64,000 nucleotides of DNA from an uncultured Candidatus Saccharibacteria bacterium (GCA_964591715.1 CAZQDR010000003.1:269-64268); one strand, 5' to 3'; shown: positions 46,446 to 63,696, numbered from the stretch's first letter. Numbers and translations: made by a program. The notes: a model not told the origin generated them from the sequence alone.

Positions 46446-46700
46446 ATGGCCACCATCATCAACACCCCAGCGAGAGCGAGCAGCGAGGAGAACGCCTGGG
46501 GAATTGTGCTCGCGGTAGTAGTTTTGGTCTTACTGGCGTTCTTCTTCTTTTCGTATTTGCTCCCAACGATGCGGGCTAATGCCCCAGCCGCTCCCGCCGC
46601 TACTCCTAGCACCCCGAGCGCCAGCATTAATGTTGAGCTACCAACGCCCGTTCAACCTCAGAGTCCAACTCCGGCTCCAACCAACGGCACAGTTCAATAA
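46446..46700 (+). CDS. Possible small membrane protein with a Pro-rich tail
   Basis: TM helix WGIVLAVVVLVLLAFFFFSYLL followed by a PAAPAATPSTPS tail. It competes with an antisense ORF. Confidence 0.35.
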   Translation: MATIINTPARASSEENAWGIVLAVVVLVLLAFFFFSYLLPTMRANAPAAPAATPSTPSASINVELPTPVQPQSPTPAPTNGTVQ

Positions 46701-47926
46701 ACTTCGCCCCAAAACGGCAGTGGTAATCGCCGATTCATCGACCCGCCTCTGGCGGGTCGATGTTGTTTAGCCACCAAACTCGAGGCTAAAAATACCGCCG
46801 CGGTGCCGCGATCACAGTGGAGGCGATCAACTATTTGATAGAGTTCCCGCGCTTGGTCACCACGGCAACTGTCGCCAAAAAGGTCCAATTGCGCTGGCGA
46901 TCGATCTCTAAAATGACTCAGCGTTACCCCGGTACTTCGATAACGGCAACCAGAGCGATACCAACGCAAACAGTAGCGAGAGGCCAGCGTCACCAACTCT
47001 CCTGGTTCAACAATTGGTCGCTCAAGCCTAAGCTCAAAAGAGTGGTAACGAAAGTCTTGGGTTTTAAAAAAGAAAAACACATGACATGGCTCCAACTCGT
47101 AGGCCCGGGCCTCTCGGCAAGCCGCTTCAATGTTTTTAGACAAATGAGACAAGAGAAAAGAAAGTTCCGTGGTGGGTGGAGTAAAAGTGCCGGTCCGACT
47201 AATCGAGCCATAGCTCTCCCGACCAACTGTTCCCACTAACTTAACCGCCTTGCCGCCCAACTCCAACCACAACTCATAGTAGGGTTGGGCAAAATGCTCC
47301 CGCACCCACCACTCGGGCTTAGCGGCAAATTGAGCGGCCGTCTTTAACCCCAGAGCCGCCAGCGCCCGAGTGGTCCGCGGTCCAATACCCCAAACTTTAC
47401 CCAAGGCTAATTGCTGCAAGATTTCCAGACGATTGGTCTCATCCATTATCACTAAGCCCGAGGGCTTACGCCACTTCGAGGCCACTTTTGCCAAAACTTT
47501 AGTTTCCGCCAGGCCCAAAGAGAAGGTGGTATTCAATTCCCGCTCTAGAGCATTTTTAATTTCCGCCACTAAGGCTCGGTAGTCCAAGCGCCGCGGCAAC
47601 TGCCAACCAGTAAGATCAGCAAAACACTCATCAATACTGTACTCCTCAACCACAGGGGTATAGCGACGAACAATCGCATACATCCGCCGAGCGTAACTTC
47701 GATAGAGCTCGTAGTCAGAGGGCAAAATAACTACTTCCGGATAACGGCGTCGGATTTGGAACACTGGCATCCCCCGCGTCACACCTAAAGCCTTGGCTTC
47801 ATAACTAAGAGCCGCAGCTATCCCCCGATCTTGGCCGACCACCACTGGTTTACCGCGCAAAGACGGGTCACGAGAAATTTCACACCCAGCGAAAAAGGCA
47901 TCACCATCAACATGCAAAATAGGCAT
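46694..47926 (-). CDS. Y-family DNA polymerase (DinB/UmuC-like)
   Basis: ILHVDGDAFFAGCE, YSIDECFADLTG, and the HhH region VWGIGPRT. Confidence 0.85.
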   Translation of the reverse strand: MPILHVDGDAFFAGCEISRDPSLRGKPVVVGQDRGIAAALSYEAKALGVTRGMPVFQIRRRYPEVVILPSDYELYRSYARRMYAIVRRYTPVVEEYSIDECFADLTGWQLPRRLDYRALVAEIKNALERELNTTFSLGLAETKVLAKVASKWRKPSGLVIMDETNRLEILQQLALGKVWGIGPRTTRALAALGLKTAAQFAAKPEWWVREHFAQPYYELWLELGGKAVKLVGTVGRESYGSISRTGTFTPPTTELSFLLSHLSKNIEAACREARAYELEPCHVFFFFKTQDFRYHSFELRLERPIVEPGELVTLASRYCLRWYRSGCRYRSTGVTLSHFRDRSPAQLDLFGDSCRGDQARELYQIVDRLHCDRGTAAVFLASSLVAKQHRPARGGSMNRRLPLPFWGEVY

Positions 47927-51135: not shown

Positions 51136-54100
51136 CTAGAGATGCTGCTTTTTGTCTTTCATTAGCTCCAAAAAGAAAGCTGGCACAATATATAGAGTGA
51201 GGAAGGAAGACAAAGTGAGGCCAAAGATAACCGCACCGCCAAGTGAGCGCCATAGCTCATTGGAAAGAGTGACTGGCAAAATACCAAAAATTGTACTAAT
51301 CGAAGTGATAAAAATCGCCTCCAACCGCGACTTACCAGCATCCGCAACCGCCTCTTGAAAAGGAATGCCACTTCGAATATTTAGATTAATTTTATCAACG
51401 AGAATAATCGCGTTCTTCACCACAATTCCGAAGAGGGCCAAAATACCGATTAGCCCAGGGAAACTGAGGGGGACGTCAAAGAGAGCCATCCCAATAAAGA
51501 CGCCAATTAGCGCTAGTGGAATCGGCACCAAAACAATCAAAGCTTTGCGGAAAGAATTAAACTGGATAATCAGTGTTGCCACAATCAAAACGAGCGCAAT
51601 AATCATGGCCCGGAGCACTGAGGTGACCGACTCGGTATTTTGCTCATTCTCACCACCATAGGTAAGAGTGTAGCCGGCCGGCAAACTATAGCCGGCAATT
51701 CTTTTTTGGAAATCCGACAAGATGGCCTGGCCGTTTGTTGAGGAATCGGCGCCAGCGGAAATAATAATGGTGCGCTTCTGATCAATGCGAGTGATCACAT
51801 CCACGGCCGGCTTCAATTCAACCTTGGCCACATCCTTCAAAAACACCGGCTGCTTGCGTAGATTAAGAATTTGCATGTTTTGAATAGCGGCCAAATCAGG
51901 AATCGCGGTTTGATCGAAAGTAGCAATCAACTGAACCTCCTTATCCCCTTCTACAATCTTAGTCAGCTCAACTCCCGAAACCGCAGTGCGGAGGGTTGAA
52001 CCAACAATCAGAGCGTTTAAATTATTTTGCTCCATAGCAGCCGAATCAAGCGTAAAGGTATACTCGGGAACAGACTCCTTCTGAGAAACATTTACGTTAA
52101 TGACGCCAGGCACTGAGACTAAGATTGGTTTGAGATCGCGGATGATTCCCGCTAGACGATCAAGGTCATCACCAGCCAAGTGCGCCTCGAAAGAAGCCCC
52201 CGAGGGCGGGCCACCCGCCAAAGTGGAAACGTTGACTGTTAAACCGGTAGTTGTTGCCAAGTCGACCCGCAAGCGATCAGAGAATTCGTAAGATTTTTCG
52301 GAGCGCTCCCCTTTCTCTTTAAGAATAATGGAAATACCCGCCAGGTTGGCGCCACTCCCAGAACCAGAAAAGGAACCTGAGTTGGGACTGGATTGTCCCA
52401 CCACGGTTGAAAAATTAGCAATGTCTTCGTAGTGGCGCAATTGCTGTTCCACCTTCTGAACCCGAGAGTCCGTTTCGGCCAGAGTAGTACCAACCGGCGC
52501 TCTTAGGTCAACGAAAACATAGTCACTATCCTGAATCGGAAAGAAGACGCTCTTAACAAAACCCAACGCCACCAGCGCCACCGCCACAAAAAACAAAACA
52601 ACGACGACGCCAATAACGCGACGACGTTTCTTTTTGTCGATAATATAGTATCGAAATGAGCGCTCATATAGCGGCAAGAAACGCTGAAAGTTAATAATGC
52701 CGTGCATTACTTTGCCAGCAAAGTTTTCGTGATCGCGGCTTCCCTGCGCGGCCAATTTTGCTTTGATTAGATCATCACTGTCCCACTCGCGCTCCATCTG
52801 CTCTTTATTGACCGACAGCTTAGACTTGCCCCCTTTCTCGTACCAGCGGATTAAATAGAGGGAAATCGCCACCAAAACAATGCCCACAATAGTAGCAATA
52901 ATCCCACCGACATAAAAAAGAATTGCTGCGATCGTCAAAAGCCCAGCTTCGAGTAAGAATAAGAAACGCCGCGTCAAGCGAAGGCGCTCAAGCACCGCGG
53001 CAAGCGGGTGGTTAATCATGAGAGCGATCAAGAGCGATGCAATCAGCGTAATCGACACGGTAACTGGAATTGATTTTAAGTATTGGCCAATGATGCCCGT
53101 GGCAAACAAGAGCGGCAAGAAAGCCCAGACCGTCGCCAGAGTCGTAGTTAACAGCACCCCCTTAAAATCGTTGAGCACCAAAAGCACCGCTTCTTCGGGC
53201 GTAAACTTACCGGTATTTAAATATTGCTTTGTCGCTGACACCACCACGATCGCATCGTCAACCAACAAACCCAACGCTAAAATAAGAGAAAACAGGGAGA
53301 GAAAGTTAAGCGAGATGCCGAGCAATAAAAGTGAGCCGAAGGTGACAAAGAAGACCAGCGGAATCGCCAGCACGGCCACAAACGCCTCCTTCAAACCAAC
53401 AATCAAAAAAAGAATGATGGATACCAGCAGAATCGTGAGCAAAAAATCATCAGAGAGCTGAACAAAATCCTCCCGCACTTGTTTAGCCATATCCGTACCA
53501 ACCACGTCATAAGTAATTCCCGGGGGTAGACTGGCCACCATTTTATCGACCGTCGCTTTAGCCTCGTCAACCGTGTCTAATACTGAGGCCCCCTGACGCT
53601 TAACCAGCGAGAGAGTAACTGCATTCTTCGGTGCCGCCCCCGCAATCGACAGACGCGAATAAACAGTTTTTTTATGCGCCTTTTCTGTAACTTCGGCCAC
53701 ATCTTTAAGCAAAATCACTCCCCCGCTTTCAGGATGAGCAATCGCCAGTGAGGCAATTTGCTCAACTGTCTCTAAAGGCAAGTCCGTTCGAATTGGCACA
53801 ATAAACGAACCCGTTTCGAGATTACCAGCGGGGATCGCTGTGTTGGCTGCCAAGATAGCATTGTTTGCCTCGGCCGCTGTGACCCCGTAAAACAAAAGTT
53901 GGTCGGGACGATAGGCTACCTCGATTTCCTTCTCATCACCACCGGAAATTTCAATCTGACGCACGCCAGGAATCTTCTCAAGTTCTGTTTGAATATCTTC
54001 CGCATATTTGCGAAGCGTGAAGGCATCATATGGACCAGTGACCGAAATTGACCAAACCGGCATATCATCAAGCGAGACTTCAGTCACGATTGGATCTTTA

Positions 54101-54543
54101 GCATCAGTGGAAATGCTAGACTTGGCCGCATCAACCGAGTTTCTTAACAGCTGAATCGAGCTTTGAATGTCAGCGCTGGCGTTAAACTCAACAACAATGG
54201 AAGACAAGGAGTTATAAGAATTAGAGGTAATTTTATTAAGCCCCCTCAGTCCCGACAACTCAGTCTCAATTTTTTTGGTCACAAATTGCTCCACGTCCGA
54301 CGGCGAAGCGCCCGGAAAAACAGTGGTTACCACTGCGATGGGAATTTTTACCTCTGGATTCGATTCTTGGGGCAAGCTAAAAAAAGCGTAGAGACCCCAG
54401 ACGCTGATTAATAAAATCATTAAAACAACTACCCGAAAATTGGTGACAAAAAAGTTAAACCACGTCTGACGCAGCTCGGGCCGAAAAGTTAAGCGCTCAA
54501 GATATTTGCTGTCTGAAGAGTGTTCGTGGTTGAAGTCCGCCAT
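51136..54543 (-). CDS. RND-superfamily efflux transporter (AcrB/AcrD/AcrF family)
   Basis: 12-TM architecture with two large loops, and a typical N-terminus ...RPELRQTWFNFFVTNFRVVVLMILLISVWGLYAF. Confidence 0.88.
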   Translation of the reverse strand: MADFNHEHSSDSKYLERLTFRPELRQTWFNFFVTNFRVVVLMILLISVWGLYAFFSLPQESNPEVKIPIAVVTTVFPGASPSDVEQFVTKKIETELSGLRGLNKITSNSYNSLSSIVVEFNASADIQSSIQLLRNSVDAAKSSISTDAKDPIVTEVSLDDMPVWSISVTGPYDAFTLRKYAEDIQTELEKIPGVRQIEISGGDEKEIEVAYRPDQLLFYGVTAAEANNAILAANTAIPAGNLETGSFIVPIRTDLPLETVEQIASLAIAHPESGGVILLKDVAEVTEKAHKKTVYSRLSIAGAAPKNAVTLSLVKRQGASVLDTVDEAKATVDKMVASLPPGITYDVVGTDMAKQVREDFVQLSDDFLLTILLVSIILFLIVGLKEAFVAVLAIPLVFFVTFGSLLLLGISLNFLSLFSLILALGLLVDDAIVVVSATKQYLNTGKFTPEEAVLLVLNDFKGVLLTTTLATVWAFLPLLFATGIIGQYLKSIPVTVSITLIASLLIALMINHPLAAVLERLRLTRRFLFLLEAGLLTIAAILFYVGGIIATIVGIVLVAISLYLIRWYEKGGKSKLSVNKEQMEREWDSDDLIKAKLAAQGSRDHENFAGKVMHGIINFQRFLPLYERSFRYYIIDKKKRRRVIGVVVVLFFVAVALVALGFVKSVFFPIQDSDYVFVDLRAPVGTTLAETDSRVQKVEQQLRHYEDIANFSTVVGQSSPNSGSFSGSGSGANLAGISIILKEKGERSEKSYEFSDRLRVDLATTTGLTVNVSTLAGGPPSGASFEAHLAGDDLDRLAGIIRDLKPILVSVPGVINVNVSQKESVPEYTFTLDSAAMEQNNLNALIVGSTLRTAVSGVELTKIVEGDKEVQLIATFDQTAIPDLAAIQNMQILNLRKQPVFLKDVAKVELKPAVDVITRIDQKRTIIISAGADSSTNGQAILSDFQKRIAGYSLPAGYTLTYGGENEQNTESVTSVLRAMIIALVLIVATLIIQFNSFRKALIVLVPIPLALIGVFIGMALFDVPLSFPGLIGILALFGIVVKNAIILVDKINLNIRSGIPFQEAVADAGKSRLEAIFITSISTIFGILPVTLSNELWRSLGGAVIFGLTLSSFLTLYIVPAFFLELMKDKKQHL

Positions 54544-54549
54544 AACTAT

Positions 54550-56073
54550 TTATTGCACCACGACCGTTTGGCCCTCATCTAACTCGTAAACCGGCGTCAC
54601 TAAATTAATCGTGTCATTCAATCCAGAAACAACCTCAATAAAGTCGCCTTGGATTTCCCCCAAAATAACCGGGAGACGTTTGATCTTAGAGCTTTGATCG
54701 ACAGTATAAACAAAAGCATCCCCTGGAATAATTTTGACGTTTTGAATCGGTAGCACGTAGGTCACGGGTTTATCTGAGTTTTCGGTAACCGCGGCGGCAC
54801 CCGTAATAATGGCCACACCCACATTTTGGCCGACCACCAATTTAGTATTGGCACTATCTGTAACTGAGATGTTAACCTCCGCTTTTTTAGTGAGGAGATC
54901 AACGCTCGGTGCCACCCCGGAAACCACCCCCTTAGCTGAACCCTGAATCAGCGCTGCTTGGCCGACTTTTATTCGCGAGAGATCATCACCGCTGGCGCGC
55001 GCCTTAATTTGCAAATTAACATTATCGCCCACCACCGTGGCCAACAAGGCACCAGGCAGGGCCAGCTCACCGGGTCGCAAAGGCAAGGAAGCAATCCGCC
55101 CAGTGATCGGCGAAGTAATAACCGTTTTGGCTAGCTGGGCCTGCAGGTTGTTAACCCCGGCCCGGGCGGCGGCCACTCCCGCCGAAGCAGTGGTGTTTTG
55201 CGAAGCATTGCCAGTAGCCAAAGCTGCTCCGGCACCAGTAAGTGCCTGGGCAGCACCACTAACAATGCCTCGAGAAGTGGAGATGGTCGTCTTCCAGCCA
55301 TTAAGTCTCGTCAATTCTGAAGCGGGAGAAGTTTTTGCTGTGTCATTAAGCGCTTGGGAAATGTAACTAAGGAGATTATCAATTACTCCCAAATTTCTTT
55401 CAGATAACTCAACAACCGCCGTGACACTTTCGAGATCAGTGGCAACCGATAGAGAGTTAACCGCAATTTTCCATTCTACTAAATCAGTTCGCAAATCCAG
55501 CCAGGTGTCTAAGATGTTTGTTTTTAATTTGCTGTCGCCAATCATCGATTCTAGTCTTCCACCAGTACCATCATTGTTATATAAAATTGGCTCAAGCTGA
55601 GAGTTAACAATGTCGTAACCTTTAACATAGGCGTCGCGGATTTTATCAATCGCCCCCTGCTTAGCCGACTCGACCGACACTGAACCGGTGTACTGCTGGC
55701 CTTCGGCCACCGCGAGTCCCGCTTGAGCCTGGGCCAACTGAGCCCGAATGTCCGCGTTAGTAAGTTCCATAATTACTTGGCCAGCATAGACAGTATCCCC
55801 AACCGCCACATTAACCGTCGCCACCGGTGCCGATAATTGGCTCTTTAAATCAGCCTGAGATAACGACTCCACCACGCCATTGGCGGCCACGTTCAGATTA
55901 CCTCGACGAAAAGTGCCAGCATTTACTAAGGTAACTTTGGTGGGGGCAACATTGACCTCGGTCGCCGGCCGACTCAATAGCGCTCGGCCACCAATGATGG
56001 CCACCATTACCACAATCACTCCAATCACCGACGCCGCCGCCACATGTTGGCGAAGATAAGAAAATTTATTCAT
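54550..56073 (-). CDS. Efflux adaptor / membrane fusion protein (HlyD family)
   Basis: N-terminal TM helix, lipoyl-like VAVGDTVYAGQVIMEL, a coiled-coil hairpin, and a beta-barrel domain. Confidence 0.72.
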   Translation of the reverse strand: MNKFSYLRQHVAAASVIGVIVVMVAIIGGRALLSRPATEVNVAPTKVTLVNAGTFRRGNLNVAANGVVESLSQADLKSQLSAPVATVNVAVGDTVYAGQVIMELTNADIRAQLAQAQAGLAVAEGQQYTGSVSVESAKQGAIDKIRDAYVKGYDIVNSQLEPILYNNDGTGGRLESMIGDSKLKTNILDTWLDLRTDLVEWKIAVNSLSVATDLESVTAVVELSERNLGVIDNLLSYISQALNDTAKTSPASELTRLNGWKTTISTSRGIVSGAAQALTGAGAALATGNASQNTTASAGVAAARAGVNNLQAQLAKTVITSPITGRIASLPLRPGELALPGALLATVVGDNVNLQIKARASGDDLSRIKVGQAALIQGSAKGVVSGVAPSVDLLTKKAEVNISVTDSANTKLVVGQNVGVAIITGAAAVTENSDKPVTYVLPIQNVKIIPGDAFVYTVDQSSKIKRLPVILGEIQGDFIEVVSGLNDTINLVTPVYELDEGQTVVVQ

Positions 56074-56100
56074 AAATCGGATATTACACCAGAACTCGTT

Positions 56101-57204
56101 CTAGGGCAACTCGTCAACAATTTTATCTTTCCGAGGCAAGCTGAAGTAGAATGACGAGCCCTTGCCCTTCTTACTTTCCAGCCACATTTTTCCTTTATGG
56201 GCCACCACTATTTGCTTGGCCACATATAAACCCAAGCCAATACCTTCGATCTTGAGATTAATCGCCCCCGTAGTCCGATAAAAGCGCCCGAAAATTTCAG
56301 GCTGTTCCGCCTCTGCAATACCCAACCCAAAATCTTTGACCGAGACCACAATGTTGTCCACCTTATCGACACCCTTAACAATCACCTCATCAGCACCGGG
56401 AGAATATTTGATAGCATTCGTTAGAAGATTGACCAAAACTTGAGCCAGTCTGTCTCGATCACCGTATACCTTCTCAGCAATTTTACCCTCGTGGAGAATC
56501 GTGTGCTTTTTGGTGACCATCTGAATCGTCCCAATTGTCTCCTCGATAAGAATATTCATATCAAAGAATTTCTTTTTCAATTGCAATCTCCCCTTCTGAA
56601 TCTTACCGACATCTAAAAGATAATCCATCAGCGTTACGATCTTATCTACTTGTTTATTTAAATCAACAACTGATTGGATATGAGCTTCATTATTAGATCG
56701 CCTAGTTTCCGCTTCGACAATTTCTCCGTACAGTTTCAGACTCGTAACCGGAGATTTAAGTTCGTGGGTGGCAGTGCTAATGAAAGAGTCCTTTCTTTTT
56801 TCAAACTCCGCCTTCTCGCTTAAGTCGCGCACAATAAAAGTAAAGCCTTGCGCGGCCGCCTTCTCATCATTTAAAGCAAAAATCAATCCACTAGCCCAAA
56901 ACTGCGTACCATCTTTGCGTAGATGATGACGTTCAATAACCACCTTGCCTTTGGCGACAGCCGCCAAAAGTTCTTTCCTTAGTTTGTGGCTATCAACATC
57001 TTCCTTGCGAAAAATAATCGACGCATTTTTACCCAGAACTTCAGGCTCTTTATAGCCAAATAGCTTTTGGGCTCCGCCATTCCAGCTGTTGATATGGCCC
57101 CTCCTGTCGGTCGTGAAAATCGCGTATCCAGTAAGACTCTCTACGAGCAAGCGGTAAAAATTATCATCTACCCGAAAACCTTCATGTTTGATTGGTTTTT
57201 TCAA
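56101..57204 (-). CDS. Cytoplasmic PAS-domain sensor histidine kinase
   Basis: PAS GHINSWNGGAQKLFGY, H-box FISTATHELKSPVT, N-box LLTNAIKYS, and G-boxes DFGLGI and GIGLGLY. Confidence 0.85.
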   Translation of the reverse strand: MKKPIKHEGFRVDDNFYRLLVESLTGYAIFTTDRRGHINSWNGGAQKLFGYKEPEVLGKNASIIFRKEDVDSHKLRKELLAAVAKGKVVIERHHLRKDGTQFWASGLIFALNDEKAAAQGFTFIVRDLSEKAEFEKRKDSFISTATHELKSPVTSLKLYGEIVEAETRRSNNEAHIQSVVDLNKQVDKIVTLMDYLLDVGKIQKGRLQLKKKFFDMNILIEETIGTIQMVTKKHTILHEGKIAEKVYGDRDRLAQVLVNLLTNAIKYSPGADEVIVKGVDKVDNIVVSVKDFGLGIAEAEQPEIFGRFYRTTGAINLKIEGIGLGLYVAKQIVVAHKGKMWLESKKGKGSSFYFSLPRKDKIVDELP

Positions 57205-57305: not shown

Positions 57306-57692
57306 TTAATTAAACTTGATTTCAAACGGGTACATACCCATGCCACAGGAACCTTTAAGTGTGCCAAGCTGACCACTGCCAATATCAATATCCGTTGACC
57401 CCGTTTGAGGCAGTAGCTTTGAAATATTCATACTGGCGATCCTAACCGATGACGAACAATCAAACGTATTTTGAGTGTTAAATCGAAGAATGGTCGGGAT
57501 CCCGGCTTTAGCCACACTCTTGCGAGGCTGAAAACCGCCCCGAGCCGTAATCTCTATTATTTGTTTCCCATCAACAATGGTGACATTATTGCCGTTCTCG
57601 GTTAACTCCGCGCCGTCTTTATTACCGGCAAACAGGAAAGCTCCTCCAATGAGAGCCAGGGCGATAAATATGGCGATAACGGTTGCTTTCAT
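57306..57692 (-). CDS. Membrane-anchored cupredoxin-like protein
   Basis: Start re-picked at MKATVIAIF (ATG at 57692). The C-terminal ...GSCGMGMYPFEIKF resembles the Cupredoxin_1 family, and the gene sits in a copper operon. Confidence 0.5.
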   Translation of the reverse strand: MKATVIAIFIALALIGGAFLFAGNKDGAELTENGNNVTIVDGKQIIEITARGGFQPRKSVAKAGIPTILRFNTQNTFDCSSSVRIASMNISKLLPQTGSTDIDIGSGQLGTLKGSCGMGMYPFEIKFN

Positions 57693-57705
57693 AAATATTA
57701 TTATT

Positions 57706-58737
57706 TTAAAAATTAAACACTGGCGGAATAAGCCCAATGACCACCAAACTATTTATAAGGTTAAACAGCGCAAACATGATCACGATCAAGCCAGCCGTCT
57801 TAAAGAAAACTCCAGCCTTCGAACTTTTTTGGATGCTGAATGAACTAAAACTGATCAGGGCTAAAACGGGCAAAGTACCCAAAGCAAAAGCCAACATCGT
57901 TAACCCGCCAGCAATAAAGCTCCCCGTGGTCAGCGTGTAAAGCTGCATCGACTGAGTAAAACCGCAAGGCAAGAAGAAAGTGGCCACACCAACCGCGAGT
58001 GGGGTGAGAGTGTGATTAAGCTTTGAGACCCCATGAGCGTGTTTGGCAATAAACTTTGGCATCGAGGGCTGAAGCTTCTTAGCCCAATGAAAGGTGTCGA
58101 GAAGGTTAATCCCCAAAATAAGCATAACGGCAGCAATAACCAGACCCAAAATAAAAGTGGCGGTCGAACTTAGAGTAAAGGCTGACCCGATCGCCCCAAT
58201 AACTCCACCCAAAACAAAGAAAGAAACGATTCTTCCCCCATGGAACATCAGCTGGGGACGGACTTTGTCGCCCTCTTTAGCAAAGGTGGCGGACATCGAT
58301 AGAACCAGGCCACCCACTACCGCCATACAGGTCGAAAGCGAAGCGATTACTCCAACAATAAAAGTGGTGCCGTAGGAGACATTGCCGGCACTAACCAGGT
58401 TTACGATTCCCATTTTTTGAAGTCCGACAAATAAAACAGCAAAGGCAACCGCAATGGGAGCGGCAATCTTAAAGTCTCGCCACTTTGCTTGATGTTGCTG
58501 CTTAGATACCGAAACCGTATAGCCGTGGGATTTAAGAGGTACGGTGAGCTCCTCCGCGATCTGCTCTGGCGCCTGATTGCCAAAATTACCGACTACCTCT
58601 ACCGAATGATGTTTCAGACTGGATTTGACTTTAGTCAATTGAGGTAAATCACGCAACTCACTTTCGATCATGAGGACACAGGAATTACAGTGCATGCCGT
58701 GGACGTGAAAAATATAGGTTTGGTTTTGAGTGGCCAT
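57706..58737 (-). CDS. HMA-domain protein fused to a DsbD_2/TauE-like membrane domain
   Basis: GMHCNSCV metal-binding motif followed by 6-7 TM helices. Confidence 0.7.
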   Translation of the reverse strand: MATQNQTYIFHVHGMHCNSCVLMIESELRDLPQLTKVKSSLKHHSVEVVGNFGNQAPEQIAEELTVPLKSHGYTVSVSKQQHQAKWRDFKIAAPIAVAFAVLFVGLQKMGIVNLVSAGNVSYGTTFIVGVIASLSTCMAVVGGLVLSMSATFAKEGDKVRPQLMFHGGRIVSFFVLGGVIGAIGSAFTLSSTATFILGLVIAAVMLILGINLLDTFHWAKKLQPSMPKFIAKHAHGVSKLNHTLTPLAVGVATFFLPCGFTQSMQLYTLTTGSFIAGGLTMLAFALGTLPVLALISFSSFSIQKSSKAGVFFKTAGLIVIMFALFNLINSLVVIGLIPPVFNF

Positions 58738-58742
58738 AGTAA

Positions 58743-60986
58743 TTATAATTTTTTAGCTTTGATTCTAAGCGAGTTGGAGACGACCGACACACTGGAAAAG
58801 GCCATCGCCAAACCGGCAAACACCGGATTCAACAGCCAGCCAAAGACTGGATAAAACACGCCCGCCGCCAGCGGGATGCCGATGATGTTATAGATAAAGG
58901 CCCAGAAAAGATTTTGCTTAATCCCCCGCATTGTCATCCGGGACAACTTAATAGCTTTTACCAGCTTCGAAATGTCGCCGCCCAACAGAGTAATACCGGC
59001 TGACTCGATCGCGACGTCAGTGCCCGTCCCCATCGCAATTCCCACGTCAGCTTGAGCTAAGGCGGGAGCATCATTAACCCCATCACCAGCCATGGCCACC
59101 GTTTTACCTTGCGATTGTAATTCTTTTATTTTTGCTAGTTTATCTTGAGGTAAAACATGAGCGACCACATCATCAATGCCCACCAGCGAGGCGATATAGT
59201 TGGCCGCCTTTTCATCATCGCCCGTTAGCATCACCACCTTAATTCCCAGCCGATGAAGAGCGGTTACCATTGGTTTTGATTCTGGTTTAATTTCGTCAGC
59301 CACCATCACAAAACCAATAACGTTCTCGGTCGTCGCCAGAATAACCGGCGTTTTACCTTGTGCGGTGAAGAGGTCTAGGGCGCTGACATCAAAAGCCAAC
59401 CCCCGCTCATTAATCAGCTTGGCATTGCCCACAAAATATCCGACCCCTTTAACTGATCCTTTGAGTCCTCTCCCCTGTAACGCTTCGAAGTCTTCCACAT
59501 TTTCGATGATTATTTTTTTCTCTTGCGCGTAATTAACAATCGCCTGAGCAATCGGGTGCTCGGACTTCTTCTCCAATGAGGCTAGGATGGAAATCAGTTC
59601 TTCGTCTGAAAGGTTAGAGAAGTGTTTAATAACCGTGTCTACCTCGTGAAGTTTTTCTAGCGTGGCGGCATCTTTAATCAAAATTCCCTCCTTGGCTCCC
59701 TTACCAACCCCCACAATAATAGCGGTCGGCGTTGCCAGCCCCAAGGCACAAGGACAGGCAATGACCAGCACTCCCACAAAGGAAACCAGCCCAAACGATA
59801 AAGCTTGCGAGAAACCAAGAGCGGGAATGCCGAGCATTAACCAGATTCCCAGAGTCAGGAACGAGATCGCCAAAGTGATCGGCACAAAAACACTGGAAAT
59901 TTTATCGGCCAGCGCTTGAATCGGAGCTTTACTGCCCTGGGCCTCTTCGACCAGCTTGATGATCTGCGCCAGCAGAGTCTCCGCTCCCACTTTGGTAGCG
60001 CTAAAAATAAATGAACCGGTCGTATTTATTGTTCCCGCCACCACACTGTCGCCGATTTTCTTTTGGGCTGGCATCGGTTCGCCCGTCACCATCGACTCAT
60101 TAACGAAAGAGGCACCCTCGGTAATTACTCCATCGACAGGGATCTTAGCTCCCGGTTTTATCACAATCAGATCTCCATGCTTGACCTCATTCACCGAAAT
60201 CTCGACTTCTTCTCCCCCTCGAACCACCAGAGCCGTTTTAGCTTGAAGGTTGAGAAGTTTTTCAATCGCATCACCTGTCTTAATTTTTGATCGCGCTTCC
60301 AAATATTTACCGAGCGCAATAAAGGTAATAACCACGATTGTCACATCATAATAAGTCTGTTCAACATTAATGAAGGGCTGGAGTGATGACTCAAAAGCCG
60401 TAACAATAAAACTATAGAGAAACGCCGCGGAAGTACCAATACCAATCAGCGTATCCATGTTGGCTTTGCCGTAGCGGAGGAAACGATAAAAACCAAGGAG
60501 ATAGGGTTTGCCCACCACCAATAGGGCATAGGCGGCAAAGATCGGTAAAAGGTGATGGAAAAATTCTTTGCTAACGGGCCCCATTTCTGGCACCAGATTA
60601 TACTGAGCGAGAATATCCCAACCCATCACCAAGATGCTAAAAATCGCCAAAGGAATTGCGGATAAAACTTTTGATCGCATATCGGCCACCTCCGCCAACT
60701 TCTCCTTCTTTGATTGATTTAACCCTAAGTGAGCGGCGTGCTCGTCCTCTGACATCCCCATCTCACTCGCGGTAGGCAGCTCCAAGGAATACCCCAACTT
60801 TTCTATTTTTTGAGAAAGGTGGTGGGCGTTAGTCTGAGATTCATCAAAGCTTACTTTGGCCGTTTCCGTCCCATAGTTCACTTCAACCGAATCAACACCA
60901 GCTGTTTTTTTAAAAGTTTTCTCGATGATGCCCGCGCAAGAGGCGCAATGCATTCCCTTTACCCGATAAATTTTAGTGTGACTCAT
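58743..60986 (-). CDS. copA: P1B-type (copper) ATPase homolog lacking the DKTGT phosphorylation motif
   Basis: GMHCASCA HMA, TGEP, CPCALGLATP, SEHP, MLTGD and GDGVNDAP are all present. DKTGT is absent at the HEVDTV|IKHF junction (59630/59631). Confidence 0.85.
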   Translation of the reverse strand: MSHTKIYRVKGMHCASCAGIIEKTFKKTAGVDSVEVNYGTETAKVSFDESQTNAHHLSQKIEKLGYSLELPTASEMGMSEDEHAAHLGLNQSKKEKLAEVADMRSKVLSAIPLAIFSILVMGWDILAQYNLVPEMGPVSKEFFHHLLPIFAAYALLVVGKPYLLGFYRFLRYGKANMDTLIGIGTSAAFLYSFIVTAFESSLQPFINVEQTYYDVTIVVITFIALGKYLEARSKIKTGDAIEKLLNLQAKTALVVRGGEEVEISVNEVKHGDLIVIKPGAKIPVDGVITEGASFVNESMVTGEPMPAQKKIGDSVVAGTINTTGSFIFSATKVGAETLLAQIIKLVEEAQGSKAPIQALADKISSVFVPITLAISFLTLGIWLMLGIPALGFSQALSFGLVSFVGVLVIACPCALGLATPTAIIVGVGKGAKEGILIKDAATLEKLHEVDTVIKHFSNLSDEELISILASLEKKSEHPIAQAIVNYAQEKKIIIENVEDFEALQGRGLKGSVKGVGYFVGNAKLINERGLAFDVSALDLFTAQGKTPVILATTENVIGFVMVADEIKPESKPMVTALHRLGIKVVMLTGDDEKAANYIASLVGIDDVVAHVLPQDKLAKIKELQSQGKTVAMAGDGVNDAPALAQADVGIAMGTGTDVAIESAGITLLGGDISKLVKAIKLSRMTMRGIKQNLFWAFIYNIIGIPLAAGVFYPVFGWLLNPVFAGLAMAFSSVSVVSNSLRIKAKKL

Positions 60987-60991
60987 AAAAT

Positions 60992-61255
60992 CTATTTACG
61001 CTTAAGCTTATAGACCTTGAGCACTTCCCCGACAGCCTTATCGGGCTTGCCTTCTTTTATTTGTTTAACCACACAATGTGAGAGATGGTGCTCCATAAGC
61101 AGATCCTCCACATTCGACAAACCCTGCTTGGCGGCCGAGCTTTGGGTAATGACGTCAATGCAATAGGTCCCCTTCTCCACCATTTCCCGCAAGCCCCGGA
61201 CCTGACCTTCAATAATCTTTAGGCGACGAGCCAGCTTCTCCTTGTTTGTATTCAT
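60992..61255 (-). CDS. csoR: CsoR-family metal-sensing repressor
   Basis: LARRLKIIEGQVRGLREMVE...YCIDVITQ...HLSHCV (the C-H-C ligand pattern). Confidence 0.85.
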   Translation of the reverse strand: MNTNKEKLARRLKIIEGQVRGLREMVEKGTYCIDVITQSSAAKQGLSNVEDLLMEHHLSHCVVKQIKEGKPDKAVGEVLKVYKLKRK

Positions 61256-61266
61256 AGTTCTATCCT

Positions 61267-61284
61267 ATACCCCCCAGGGGGTAT
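61267..61284. promoter_or_regulatory. CsoR-type operator ATACCCCC-CA-GGGGGTAT overlapping the csoR-copA promoter
   Basis: Perfect 8-bp arms lie between TTGACG (61286-61291) and TAGGAT (61262-67). Confidence 0.7.
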
Positions 61285-61312
61285 CCGTCAAGTATAGATA
61301 TCCCCCTTACCG

Positions 61313-61354
61313 TCAAAACAAAAATGACCCCGCGAATAGTGTTCGCGGGGTCAT
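61313..61354 (-). terminator. Intrinsic terminator after the HIT gene
   Basis: ATGACCCCGCGAA-TAGTG-TTCGCGGGGTCAT hairpin followed by TTTTTGTTTTG on the minus strand. Confidence 0.75.
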
Positions 61355-61962: not shown

Positions 61963-62343
61963 TCAGTCCGGCAGAGCTTCGTTATCAAGCTTGATCGCCA
62001 GAGCTAGAAGAACTAACGCATTTCTGACTCTCAAACTACGACCGCCACCGATCATCGTTCGAAAGCGCAAAACCGGTCCGCGGTGCTGGTCGGTGCTTAA
62101 CCAAGCATCACCATCCCGAGTAAACCCGACAATCATCCGTCCTTCCCGCGTGCCATCATGATCATCGTGCAATCTCAAGTATTGCTCATCCACCGATAAT
62201 CCGGTTGGCCAAAAAGGATTGTTCAGCACCCGCAACGCATCTTTGTTCAGTCTTTCGCTGGAGGGTTCCACATTGATCTCCTTATATTTAACCAAGCTCC
62301 CCTCTTCCTCTTTAAAACTACTGCGTTTAGAAGATAGGGTCAA
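61963..62343 (-). CDS. Hypothetical protein
   Basis: An ORF with a TTG start at 62343. An alternative GTG at 62271 lies 6 nt after GGAG. I recognise no motif. Confidence 0.45.
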   Translation of the reverse strand: MTLSSKRSSFKEEEGSLVKYKEINVEPSSERLNKDALRVLNNPFWPTGLSVDEQYLRLHDDHDGTREGRMIVGFTRDGDAWLSTDQHRGPVLRFRTMIGGGRSLRVRNALVLLALAIKLDNEALPD

Positions 62344-63074: not shown

Positions 63075-63605
63075 TTAAACAAAAGAACAAATACAACTTT
63101 CTTTCCGCCGGCCGCAACCGAGACAGTCGCGGTTTACAGGTTCGCTCTCGGTGAGAAAGTCCTCTTCGTCATACTGCTCGCACCGTGCTTCGTCGGCATC
63201 GCGTTGAGAATTGTCCGTCGAGAACAGATTGATACGCCCCGGACGGTGAACCGACATCGAGACTTCGTGTTCAAGCTCGCAGCAGGCAAGCGTCGTCCTT
63301 GTGTCAGCGTCGCGAATCACTCTCATGAGCTTGTTGCGCACAGACTTCAGAAGTTTCTGGGGGTTGCGCAGTTCCCCTCGGAGGCTGTACTCAAAAAGAA
63401 TAATTTCACCCATACCCCCGAGCCGATGCTGAACAATCACGCAGTTGCTGGCGAAGCATTCCAAATCTTCTACTGTCAGTCCAATGGTCGTGATTCCATA
63501 AACCATGAACACGACTCGTGAGCATGACTGGCCGATGATGGCGAGCGTACCCTCACTCTGGATTTGAACTTGCCGAGACGCCGAAACGATGACGTTGCTT
63601 TTCAT
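63075..63605 (-). CDS. Hypothetical protein with a C-terminal Cys cluster
   Basis: Start re-picked at MKSNVIV (ATG at 63605, AGGAG 7 nt upstream). The C-terminus reads CLGCGRRKESCIC. Confidence 0.5.
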   Translation of the reverse strand: MKSNVIVSASRQVQIQSEGTLAIIGQSCSRVVFMVYGITTIGLTVEDLECFASNCVIVQHRLGGMGEIILFEYSLRGELRNPQKLLKSVRNKLMRVIRDADTRTTLACCELEHEVSMSVHRPGRINLFSTDNSQRDADEARCEQYDEEDFLTESEPVNRDCLGCGRRKESCICSFV

Positions 63606-63696
63606 CTCTAGACTCCTAATTTGAAGGAACAATGTGTCGAATGTTTATTGAGCCCAACACGTTGGCTCACAGGATCGAATGATTCTTGCTTTTACT

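Follow-up and report, generated by a model that had tools for sequence, protein, structure and literature searches.

In the E1-E1P-E2P-E2 cycle of P-type ATPases, the invariant aspartate of the DKTGT motif is phosphorylated from ATP and dephosphorylated again (PMC10973460). We analysed a copA gene for a CopA-type P1B-1 Cu(I) ATPase that lacks this motif, located in a stretch of 64,000 nucleotides (hereafter the window) from an uncultured Candidatus Saccharibacteria bacterium (GCA_964591715.1, CAZQDR010000003.1:269-64268). The closest solved structures to its 747-residue product are those of CopA from Archaeoglobus fulgidus (AfCopA, 3j09) and Legionella pneumophila (LpCopA, 3rfu), matched with E values of about 1e-155; we take their phosphorylated aspartates to be D424 and D426, respectively. 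Phosphorylation-dead mutants of P-type ATPases, in which the DKTGT aspartate is replaced by alanine or asparagine (for example ATP7B D1027A), are expected to lose the catalytic cycle and to keep metal binding. Outside DKTGT, the window protein has the same architecture and motifs as AfCopA and LpCopA. It lacks the 17 residues that match AfCopA VIFDKTGTLTKGKPEVT in the HMMER alignment, including the phosphorylated aspartate and the first strand of the hinge leading from the P-domain to the N-domain. Unlike the point mutants, it has thus lost a whole segment and not one side chain, and its P-domain fold and P-N hinge are probably impaired too.

The gene lies in a copper cassette together with csoR and genes for an HMA-DsbD_2 membrane protein and a cupredoxin-like protein. 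The same gene order is found in Patescibacteria, for instance around MCF7864930.1 (P0002) on contig JAIPIA010000001.1 of GCA_021734945.1, and the CopA proteins of these relatives have 764-771 residues and carry DKTGT, compared with 747 residues and no such motif in the window. Our literature search returned no report on a Patescibacteria csoR-copA cassette, and none of a conserved P1B ATPase lineage devoid of DKTGT.

An in-frame deletion in the copA reading frame

Two protein alignments were used to delimit the missing segment, A1 with the window protein and 13 close homologues and A2 with 51 homologues. The open reading frame (ORF), its recognisable motifs and the deletion junction are as follows.

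58743..60986, minus strand: copA-like P1B-1 Cu(I) ATPase ORF without 17 residues including DKTGT (ORF list, Pfam, PDB CopA matches, TIGR01511, alignment A1)
60933..60956, minus strand: N-terminal HMA metal-binding motif GMHCASCA, residues 11-18, intact (Pfam and coordinate check)
60075..60086, minus strand: A-domain dephosphorylation motif TGEP, residues 301-304, intact (coordinate check)
59727..59756, minus strand: transmembrane Cu(I) site CPCALGLATP, residues 411-420, intact (coordinate check)
59625..59633, minus strand: deletion junction, with Val452 (59631-59633), Ile453 ATT (59628-59630) and Lys454 (59625-59627); lost segment IVDKTGTITIGKPTLVD, equivalently VDKTGT...LVDI (codon-level comparison with intact relatives)
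59553..59564, minus strand: N-domain nucleotide-binding motif SEHP, residues 475-478, intact (coordinate check)
59217..59231, minus strand: P-domain motif MLTGD, residues 586-590, intact (coordinate check)
59064..59087, minus strand: P-domain hinge motif GDGVNDAP, residues 634-641, intact (coordinate check)
58773..58913, minus strand: P1B-1 Cu(I)-specificity motifs NX6YNX4P (residues 692-705) and MXXSSX5N (728-738), intact (coordinate check)

Whole-protein profiles assigned the 747-residue product without difficulty. It scored 563 bits with NCBIfam TIGR01511 (copper-translocating; curated cut-off 397) and 586 bits with TIGR01525 (heavy-metal P-type ATPase; curated cut-off 346). Pfam recognised HMA (residues 7-66; PF00403, E 1e-16), E1-E2_ATPase (247-432) and Hydrolase (469-647), the last match beginning at profile position 27 of 191 and leaving the motif-I part unmatched. 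The features of P1B-1 ATPases were all found (the HMA CxxC, CPC at 411-413, NX6YNX4P, MXXSSX5[NS], TGE, SEHP, TGD and GDGxNDxP), and the six hallmarks named in the first-pass annotation of this DNA (GMHCASCA, TGEP, CPCALGLATP, SEHP, MLTGD and GDGVNDAP) were verified by coordinates. Missing from the P-domain was the invariant DKTGT with the phosphorylated aspartate, and likewise the motif I nucleophile (DxDxT/V or DKTGT) that characterises the HAD superfamily at the end of β1. The single sequence feature that it lacks is the one by which P-type catalysis is defined. On its sequence, the gene is best classed as a disrupted descendant of a CopA1-type P1B-1 ATPase, neither a functional member nor a new family.

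Both alignments showed one clean gap of exactly 17 columns, corresponding to 17 residues (51 nt), IVDKTGTITIGKPTLVD, that are absent from the window protein. Homologues read LEKLHKVDTV-IVDKTGTITIGKPTLVD-IQNLSNLKDEEL where the window protein reads LEKLHEVDTV-IKHFSNLSDEEL, resuming past the gap with IQNLS and IKHFS, respectively; the HMMER alignment to the CopA structures likewise placed the query gap immediately past EVDTVI. At the nucleotide level, intact relatives have the codons GTn GAY ACn GTn ATH GTn GAY AAA ... CTn GTn GAY ATH CAA/AAA, and the window has GTA GAC ACG GTT ATT AAA CAC. The deletion is thus bounded by two Ile codons, with its finest placement at the ATT of 59628-59630 and a microhomology of only 3-4 nt (ATT/TATT), and a local scan for repeats and hairpins near the junction detected nothing notable. 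The reading frame is kept across the junction, without any frameshift. The in-frame loss of DKTGT and its aspartate put forward by the first-pass annotation is therefore confirmed by alignment and by codon comparison; the junction has two possible placements of equal standing, its 59630/59631 being one, and its gap of 14-16 residues proved to be one of 17. The sequences closest in the otherwise private LHEVDTVI stretch, retrieved by a KLHEVDTVI pattern search, are 72% identical and intact (L085 and L086). Since one of them reads ...LVDIKN..., we suggest that the ancestral sequence of the window gene was ...VDTVIVDKTGTITIGKPTLVDIKHF...

No substitute for the missing nucleophile was apparent. 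A DKTGT-equivalent aspartate elsewhere, an outcome that the first-pass annotation had allowed for, was looked for in the window and at residues 425-480, and none was found. DKTG[TS] is absent from the open frames of the entire 64-kb window, which contains no second P-type ATPase or fragment of one. The only aspartates at residues 425-480 are D439, D450 and D461, in the contexts IKDAAT, EVDTVI and LSDEEL, none of them DKTGT-like or DxDxT-like.

Conservation of the motif, constraint on the gene and predicted consequence for the pump

The gap was searched for in about 350 relatives of 38-86% identity, a comparison that the first-pass annotation had proposed, and none of them shared it. DKTGT was kept in 119/119 other top matches (79-84% identity; metagenome-assembled genomes (MAGs) of Patescibacteria/Paceibacteria type) and in all 83 of the 83 related loci from species-representative genomes that were not cut by a contig end, while DKTG[TS] was kept in each of the best 150 representatives of 50%-identity clusters (150/150; 38-65% identity). 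The best match among species-representative genomes is 80% identical to the window protein. Because no relative departs from the motif, these counts argue that DKTGT is under absolute constraint in the CopA family, with the window protein as sole exception. The disabling lesion is absent from the orthologues, as in a pseudogene.

Relaxed constraint or secondary lesions, the other mark of a pseudogene, were not detected in the rest of the gene by private substitutions, nonsynonymous divergence (dN) or divergence ratio. Private substitutions at columns with at least 97% conservation in the other 119 sequences number 9 in the window protein, all of them conservative changes, and 7-11 in intact sequences of equal isolation (11 in P0106, 9 in P0090, 7 in P0108). 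Window copA differs from its relatives by a dN of 0.09-0.11 with synonymous sites saturated (synonymous divergence, dS, undefined by NG86); dN/dS between intact pairs is 0.02-0.04. Across the operon, identities to the relatives are 84-86% for copA, 79-87% for DsbD_2, 67-69% for the cupredoxin and 60-69% for CsoR, and copA still ranks first in conservation. Divided by the divergence of dsbD, that of copA gives 0.77 between the window and L003 (15.8%/20.4%) and 0.78 between the intact L001a and L003 (10.9%/14.0%). Even the motifs that serve only the phosphorylation cycle (TGE, SEHP, TGD, GDGxNDxP) are undecayed and as well conserved as the metal sites. These results suggest that essentially all the divergence of window copA was built up under normal purifying selection, which implies that the deletion is either very recent or not real; if real, the lesion would be very young.

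The mechanistic consequence follows from the established P-type cycle (PMC10973460), which backs the earlier statement that no aspartyl-phosphate intermediate can form in a protein devoid of the DKTGT aspartate. From this mechanism we infer that the 747-residue protein has lost its pump activity; with the nucleophile missing, both ATP-dependent acyl-phosphate formation and Cu(I) transport are predicted to be absent. In the AlphaFold model of the intact P0002, residues 458-461 (TVIV) form β1, D462 comes next and residues 468-479 form a hairpin into the N-domain. Mapped on this model, the deletion would take half of β1, the phosphorylation loop and most of the P-to-N hairpin, and because these elements are removed the product would neither be phosphorylated nor, probably, hold the normal geometry of its P- and N-domains. 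We also ran AlphaFold2, from one and the same alignment of 52 sequences, on the deleted protein and on an intact control. The two models were of poor quality, with a mean predicted local distance difference test (pLDDT) of 59 for the deleted protein against 62 for the control and a predicted template modelling score (pTM) of 0.32 against 0.40. For the C-terminal half of the P-domain, pLDDT was 46-69 with the deletion and 69-85 without it, a weak hint given the poor quality of both models.

The copper cassette and its surroundings

The genes that accompany copA, and a possible promoter, are the following.

60992..61255, minus strand: csoR-family copper-sensing repressor gene, 87 residues, ending 5 nt upstream of the copA start (Pfam PF02583, E 9e-25; same position in intact relatives)
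57706..58737, minus strand: HMA-DsbD_2 membrane protein gene, 343 residues (Pfam PF00403 and PF13386; adjoins intact copA in L001, L003 and L004)
57306..57692, minus strand: cupredoxin-like protein gene with a probable ATG at 57692 giving 128 residues; the listed ORF reaches a TTG at 57737 (Pfam PF13473)
61262..61291, minus strand: promoter-like site upstream of csoR, after a terminator-like hairpin at 61324-61354 (consensus scan only, weak evidence)

The four genes form a tight operon. The repressor gene is adjacent to copA and co-oriented with it, as in CsoR-regulated efflux operons, and its product also matches a RicR-like NCBIfam model, below the cut-off of that model. The cupredoxin-like proteins of relatives have 129-135 residues. 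The same cassette is found with an intact copA in the relatives L001-L004; some relatives add a DUF305/DUF4142 gene and one genome (L001) has a tandem second copy, neither of which is present in the window. In the first-pass annotation the HMA-DsbD_2 protein had been proposed to take over copper export. This proposal did not hold: the gene, whose product is 79-87% identical to the copies of L001, L003 and L004, adjoins an intact copA in all three, which argues that it is a standard member of the cassette and a regular partner of functional CopA, not a replacement exporter. Long match spans in some related loci had suggested insertions in copA; these were rejected, the extra matches falling in the HMA domain that the downstream gene encodes.

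Cassettes of this family are found widely among Patescibacteria (Paceibacteria-like) MAGs. Related ones (L001 5734-14316, L003 4543-9901, L004 16-10462) keep a CopA identity of about 75-86% in MAGs whose labels name many different candidate phyla, and genes for a phage-type integrase, a serine recombinase and restriction-modification adjoin the cassette in relatives. The cassette has the look of a mobile island for copper resistance that circulates among Patescibacteria. In the window, it is directly followed downstream by three genes on the same strand, for a PAS/HisKA/HATPase histidine kinase (56101-57204), an HlyD-type adaptor (54550-56073) and a 1135-residue transporter of the AcrB/RND family (51136-54543). 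This RND efflux set (51136-57204) and the copper cassette may together belong to a larger metal-resistance island in a Patescibacteria-like genome. Further away, positions 46694-47926 encode a Y-family (impB/mucB/samB) DNA polymerase of 410 residues. Two ORFs upstream of the cassette, at 61963-62343 (126 residues) and 63075-63632 (185 residues), have no Pfam match, and the second is Cys-rich at its C-terminus.

A few other copA copies in public assemblies are disrupted or fragmentary. In L088 (MFTP01000002.1, Candidatus Nomurabacteria RIFCSPHIGHO2_01_FULL_40, positions 740-770), the gene is split by the loss of 1 nt within the VDT codons, five codons ahead of DKTGT (AAAGTGGATCGGTGATTGTTGACAAAACC), and a Y1-transposase-like gene and unrelated genes stand between copA and the HMA-DsbD_2 gene. 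In L087 (ENA scaffold ANAN16-1...scaffold_1727, positions 1839-1938), a gap of 100 N stands in place of CopA residues ~380-457 and stops 9 nt short of the VDKTGT codons. In L082 (1460-1481), whose contig ends inside the gene, a frameshift near CopA residue 148 was suggested by two tblastn segments that overlap in different frames. The lesions of L088 and L082 resemble that of window copA in being isolated, in single genomes of an otherwise intact family; they differ in that they break the frame and are visible to gene callers, whereas the window lesion keeps the frame and annotation would report a normal copper ATPase. Many public fragments of the family (312 residues) start exactly at VVDKTGT, a probable result of assemblies breaking in the highly conserved stretch from CPC to DKTGT. 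We do not claim a hot spot or a split gene on this basis, as the two cases examined turned out to be the N-gap and the 1-nt frameshift, in a query-biased sample.

Origin of the deletion

We lean, with modest confidence, towards a real and recent loss-of-function deletion in copA. An ordinary CopA1-type Cu(I)-exporting ATPase gene inside a csoR-copA-HMA/DsbD_2-cupredoxin copper-resistance cassette would very recently, and in a single genome, have lost 51 nt in frame between two Ile (ATT) codons, and with them the end of β1 in the P-domain, the DKTGT loop with its nucleophilic aspartate and most of the P-to-N β-hairpin. The product would still be translatable and probably inserted in the membrane, binding Cu(I) through the HMA and CPC sites, and would not pump because the E1P and E2P aspartyl-phosphate intermediates could not form. 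The copA of the window would then be a null allele, a young pseudogene with an open frame. Several observations suggest that the deletion is present in real molecules and not just in the assembly. The contig is free of N, and long stop-to-stop ORFs cover about 90% of it. The two flanks of the junction share their nearest relatives, at 86.5% and 85.8%, which speaks against a mis-join and led us to reject a chimera or recombination at the junction. Disrupted copies exist in other public assemblies (the frameshift of L088 and the apparent one of L082), and of 80 species-representative loci, 77 carry a full-length copA without interruption, two are cut by contig ends and one (L082) is both cut and apparently frameshifted; isolated lesions in copA therefore occur at the percent level.

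A possibility to which we give limited but real credence is an assembly or consensus artefact: the copA of the organism would be intact and the 51 nt lost during assembly, scaffolding or gap closing, or polishing, or the contig would represent a rare read variant. The allele has been seen only once, the window protein (P0001) forming a singleton cluster known from one contig in one MAG. JGI metagenome contigs yielded 0 matches to a degenerate DNA pattern encoding the junction peptide VDTVIKHFSN, and a protein search with the 201-residue junction segment returned only fragments of at most 350 residues and 76% identity, with no independent sighting. The rest of copA is indistinguishable from a functional gene, and a fully constrained gene without secondary lesion looks equally like an assembly error in an intact gene. 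The stretch from CPC to DKTGT is the most conserved part of a gene family that many co-occurring strains carry, sometimes as tandem copies in one genome (L001), and other assemblies break or err near the same spot (the N-gap of L087, the frameshift of L088). These last two cases came, however, from an ascertainment-biased search favouring fragments that start there, and a hot spot is not established. The artefact is further disfavoured by the absence in relatives of any repeat flanking the deleted segment that is long enough for k-mer collapse, the homology being limited to the 3-4 nt noted above, and by the lack of a chimera signal and the N-free contig of normal coding density.

It is quite improbable that selection maintains this protein as an ATP-independent pseudo-enzyme, a DKTGT-less CopA kept to bind or buffer Cu(I), to act as a passive conduit or gate, or to serve as a scaffold, partner or regulator of the HMA-DsbD_2 and cupredoxin proteins. 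If true, it would be a natural P-type ATPase repurposed without its phosphorylation cycle, and the open ORF, the intact metal-binding motifs (HMA CxxC, CPC, YN, MxxSS) and the intact csoR and operon partners are compatible with it. No second case exists, however, among the relatives compared, identical cassette partners adjoin an intact copA elsewhere, and the equal conservation of the phosphorylation-only motifs and the metal sites leaves no time under changed selection. Part of a core β-strand and the P-N hinge would be gone too, with the C-terminal P-domain modelled at lower pLDDT than in the control, poor as both models were. Of the three interpretations offered by the first-pass annotation, a decayed but open pump and an artefact thus stand and an ATP-independent derivative does not: because the lesion is unique and the rest of the gene unrelaxed, no lineage keeping a DKTGT-less protein is indicated. 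Hardly credible, finally, is a nucleophile supplied from elsewhere, by a shifted register with D450 (VDTVI) or another aspartate or by a separate P-domain fragment in trans: D450 does lie where what is left of the hydrophobic strand region, EVDTVIKH, ends, but it is the conserved non-catalytic aspartate of KVDTVIVDKTGT in all relatives and is followed by TVIK, not KTGT or xDxT, the P-N hinge hairpin is gone as well, and the window encodes no P-type fragment that could complement in trans.

A recent null allele of copA would be nothing new in kind: the gene is a routine CopA1-type member with a disruption. If the deletion is real, the strain has lost a cassette-borne copper efflux pump, which as a loss-of-function polymorphism of an accessory gene is routine and of little biological weight. 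Because the 747-residue protein scores far above the curated cut-offs of its hidden Markov models, automated pipelines would count this DKTGT-less product as a functional copper-resistance gene, and inferring metal resistance from MAGs needs checks at the level of motifs.

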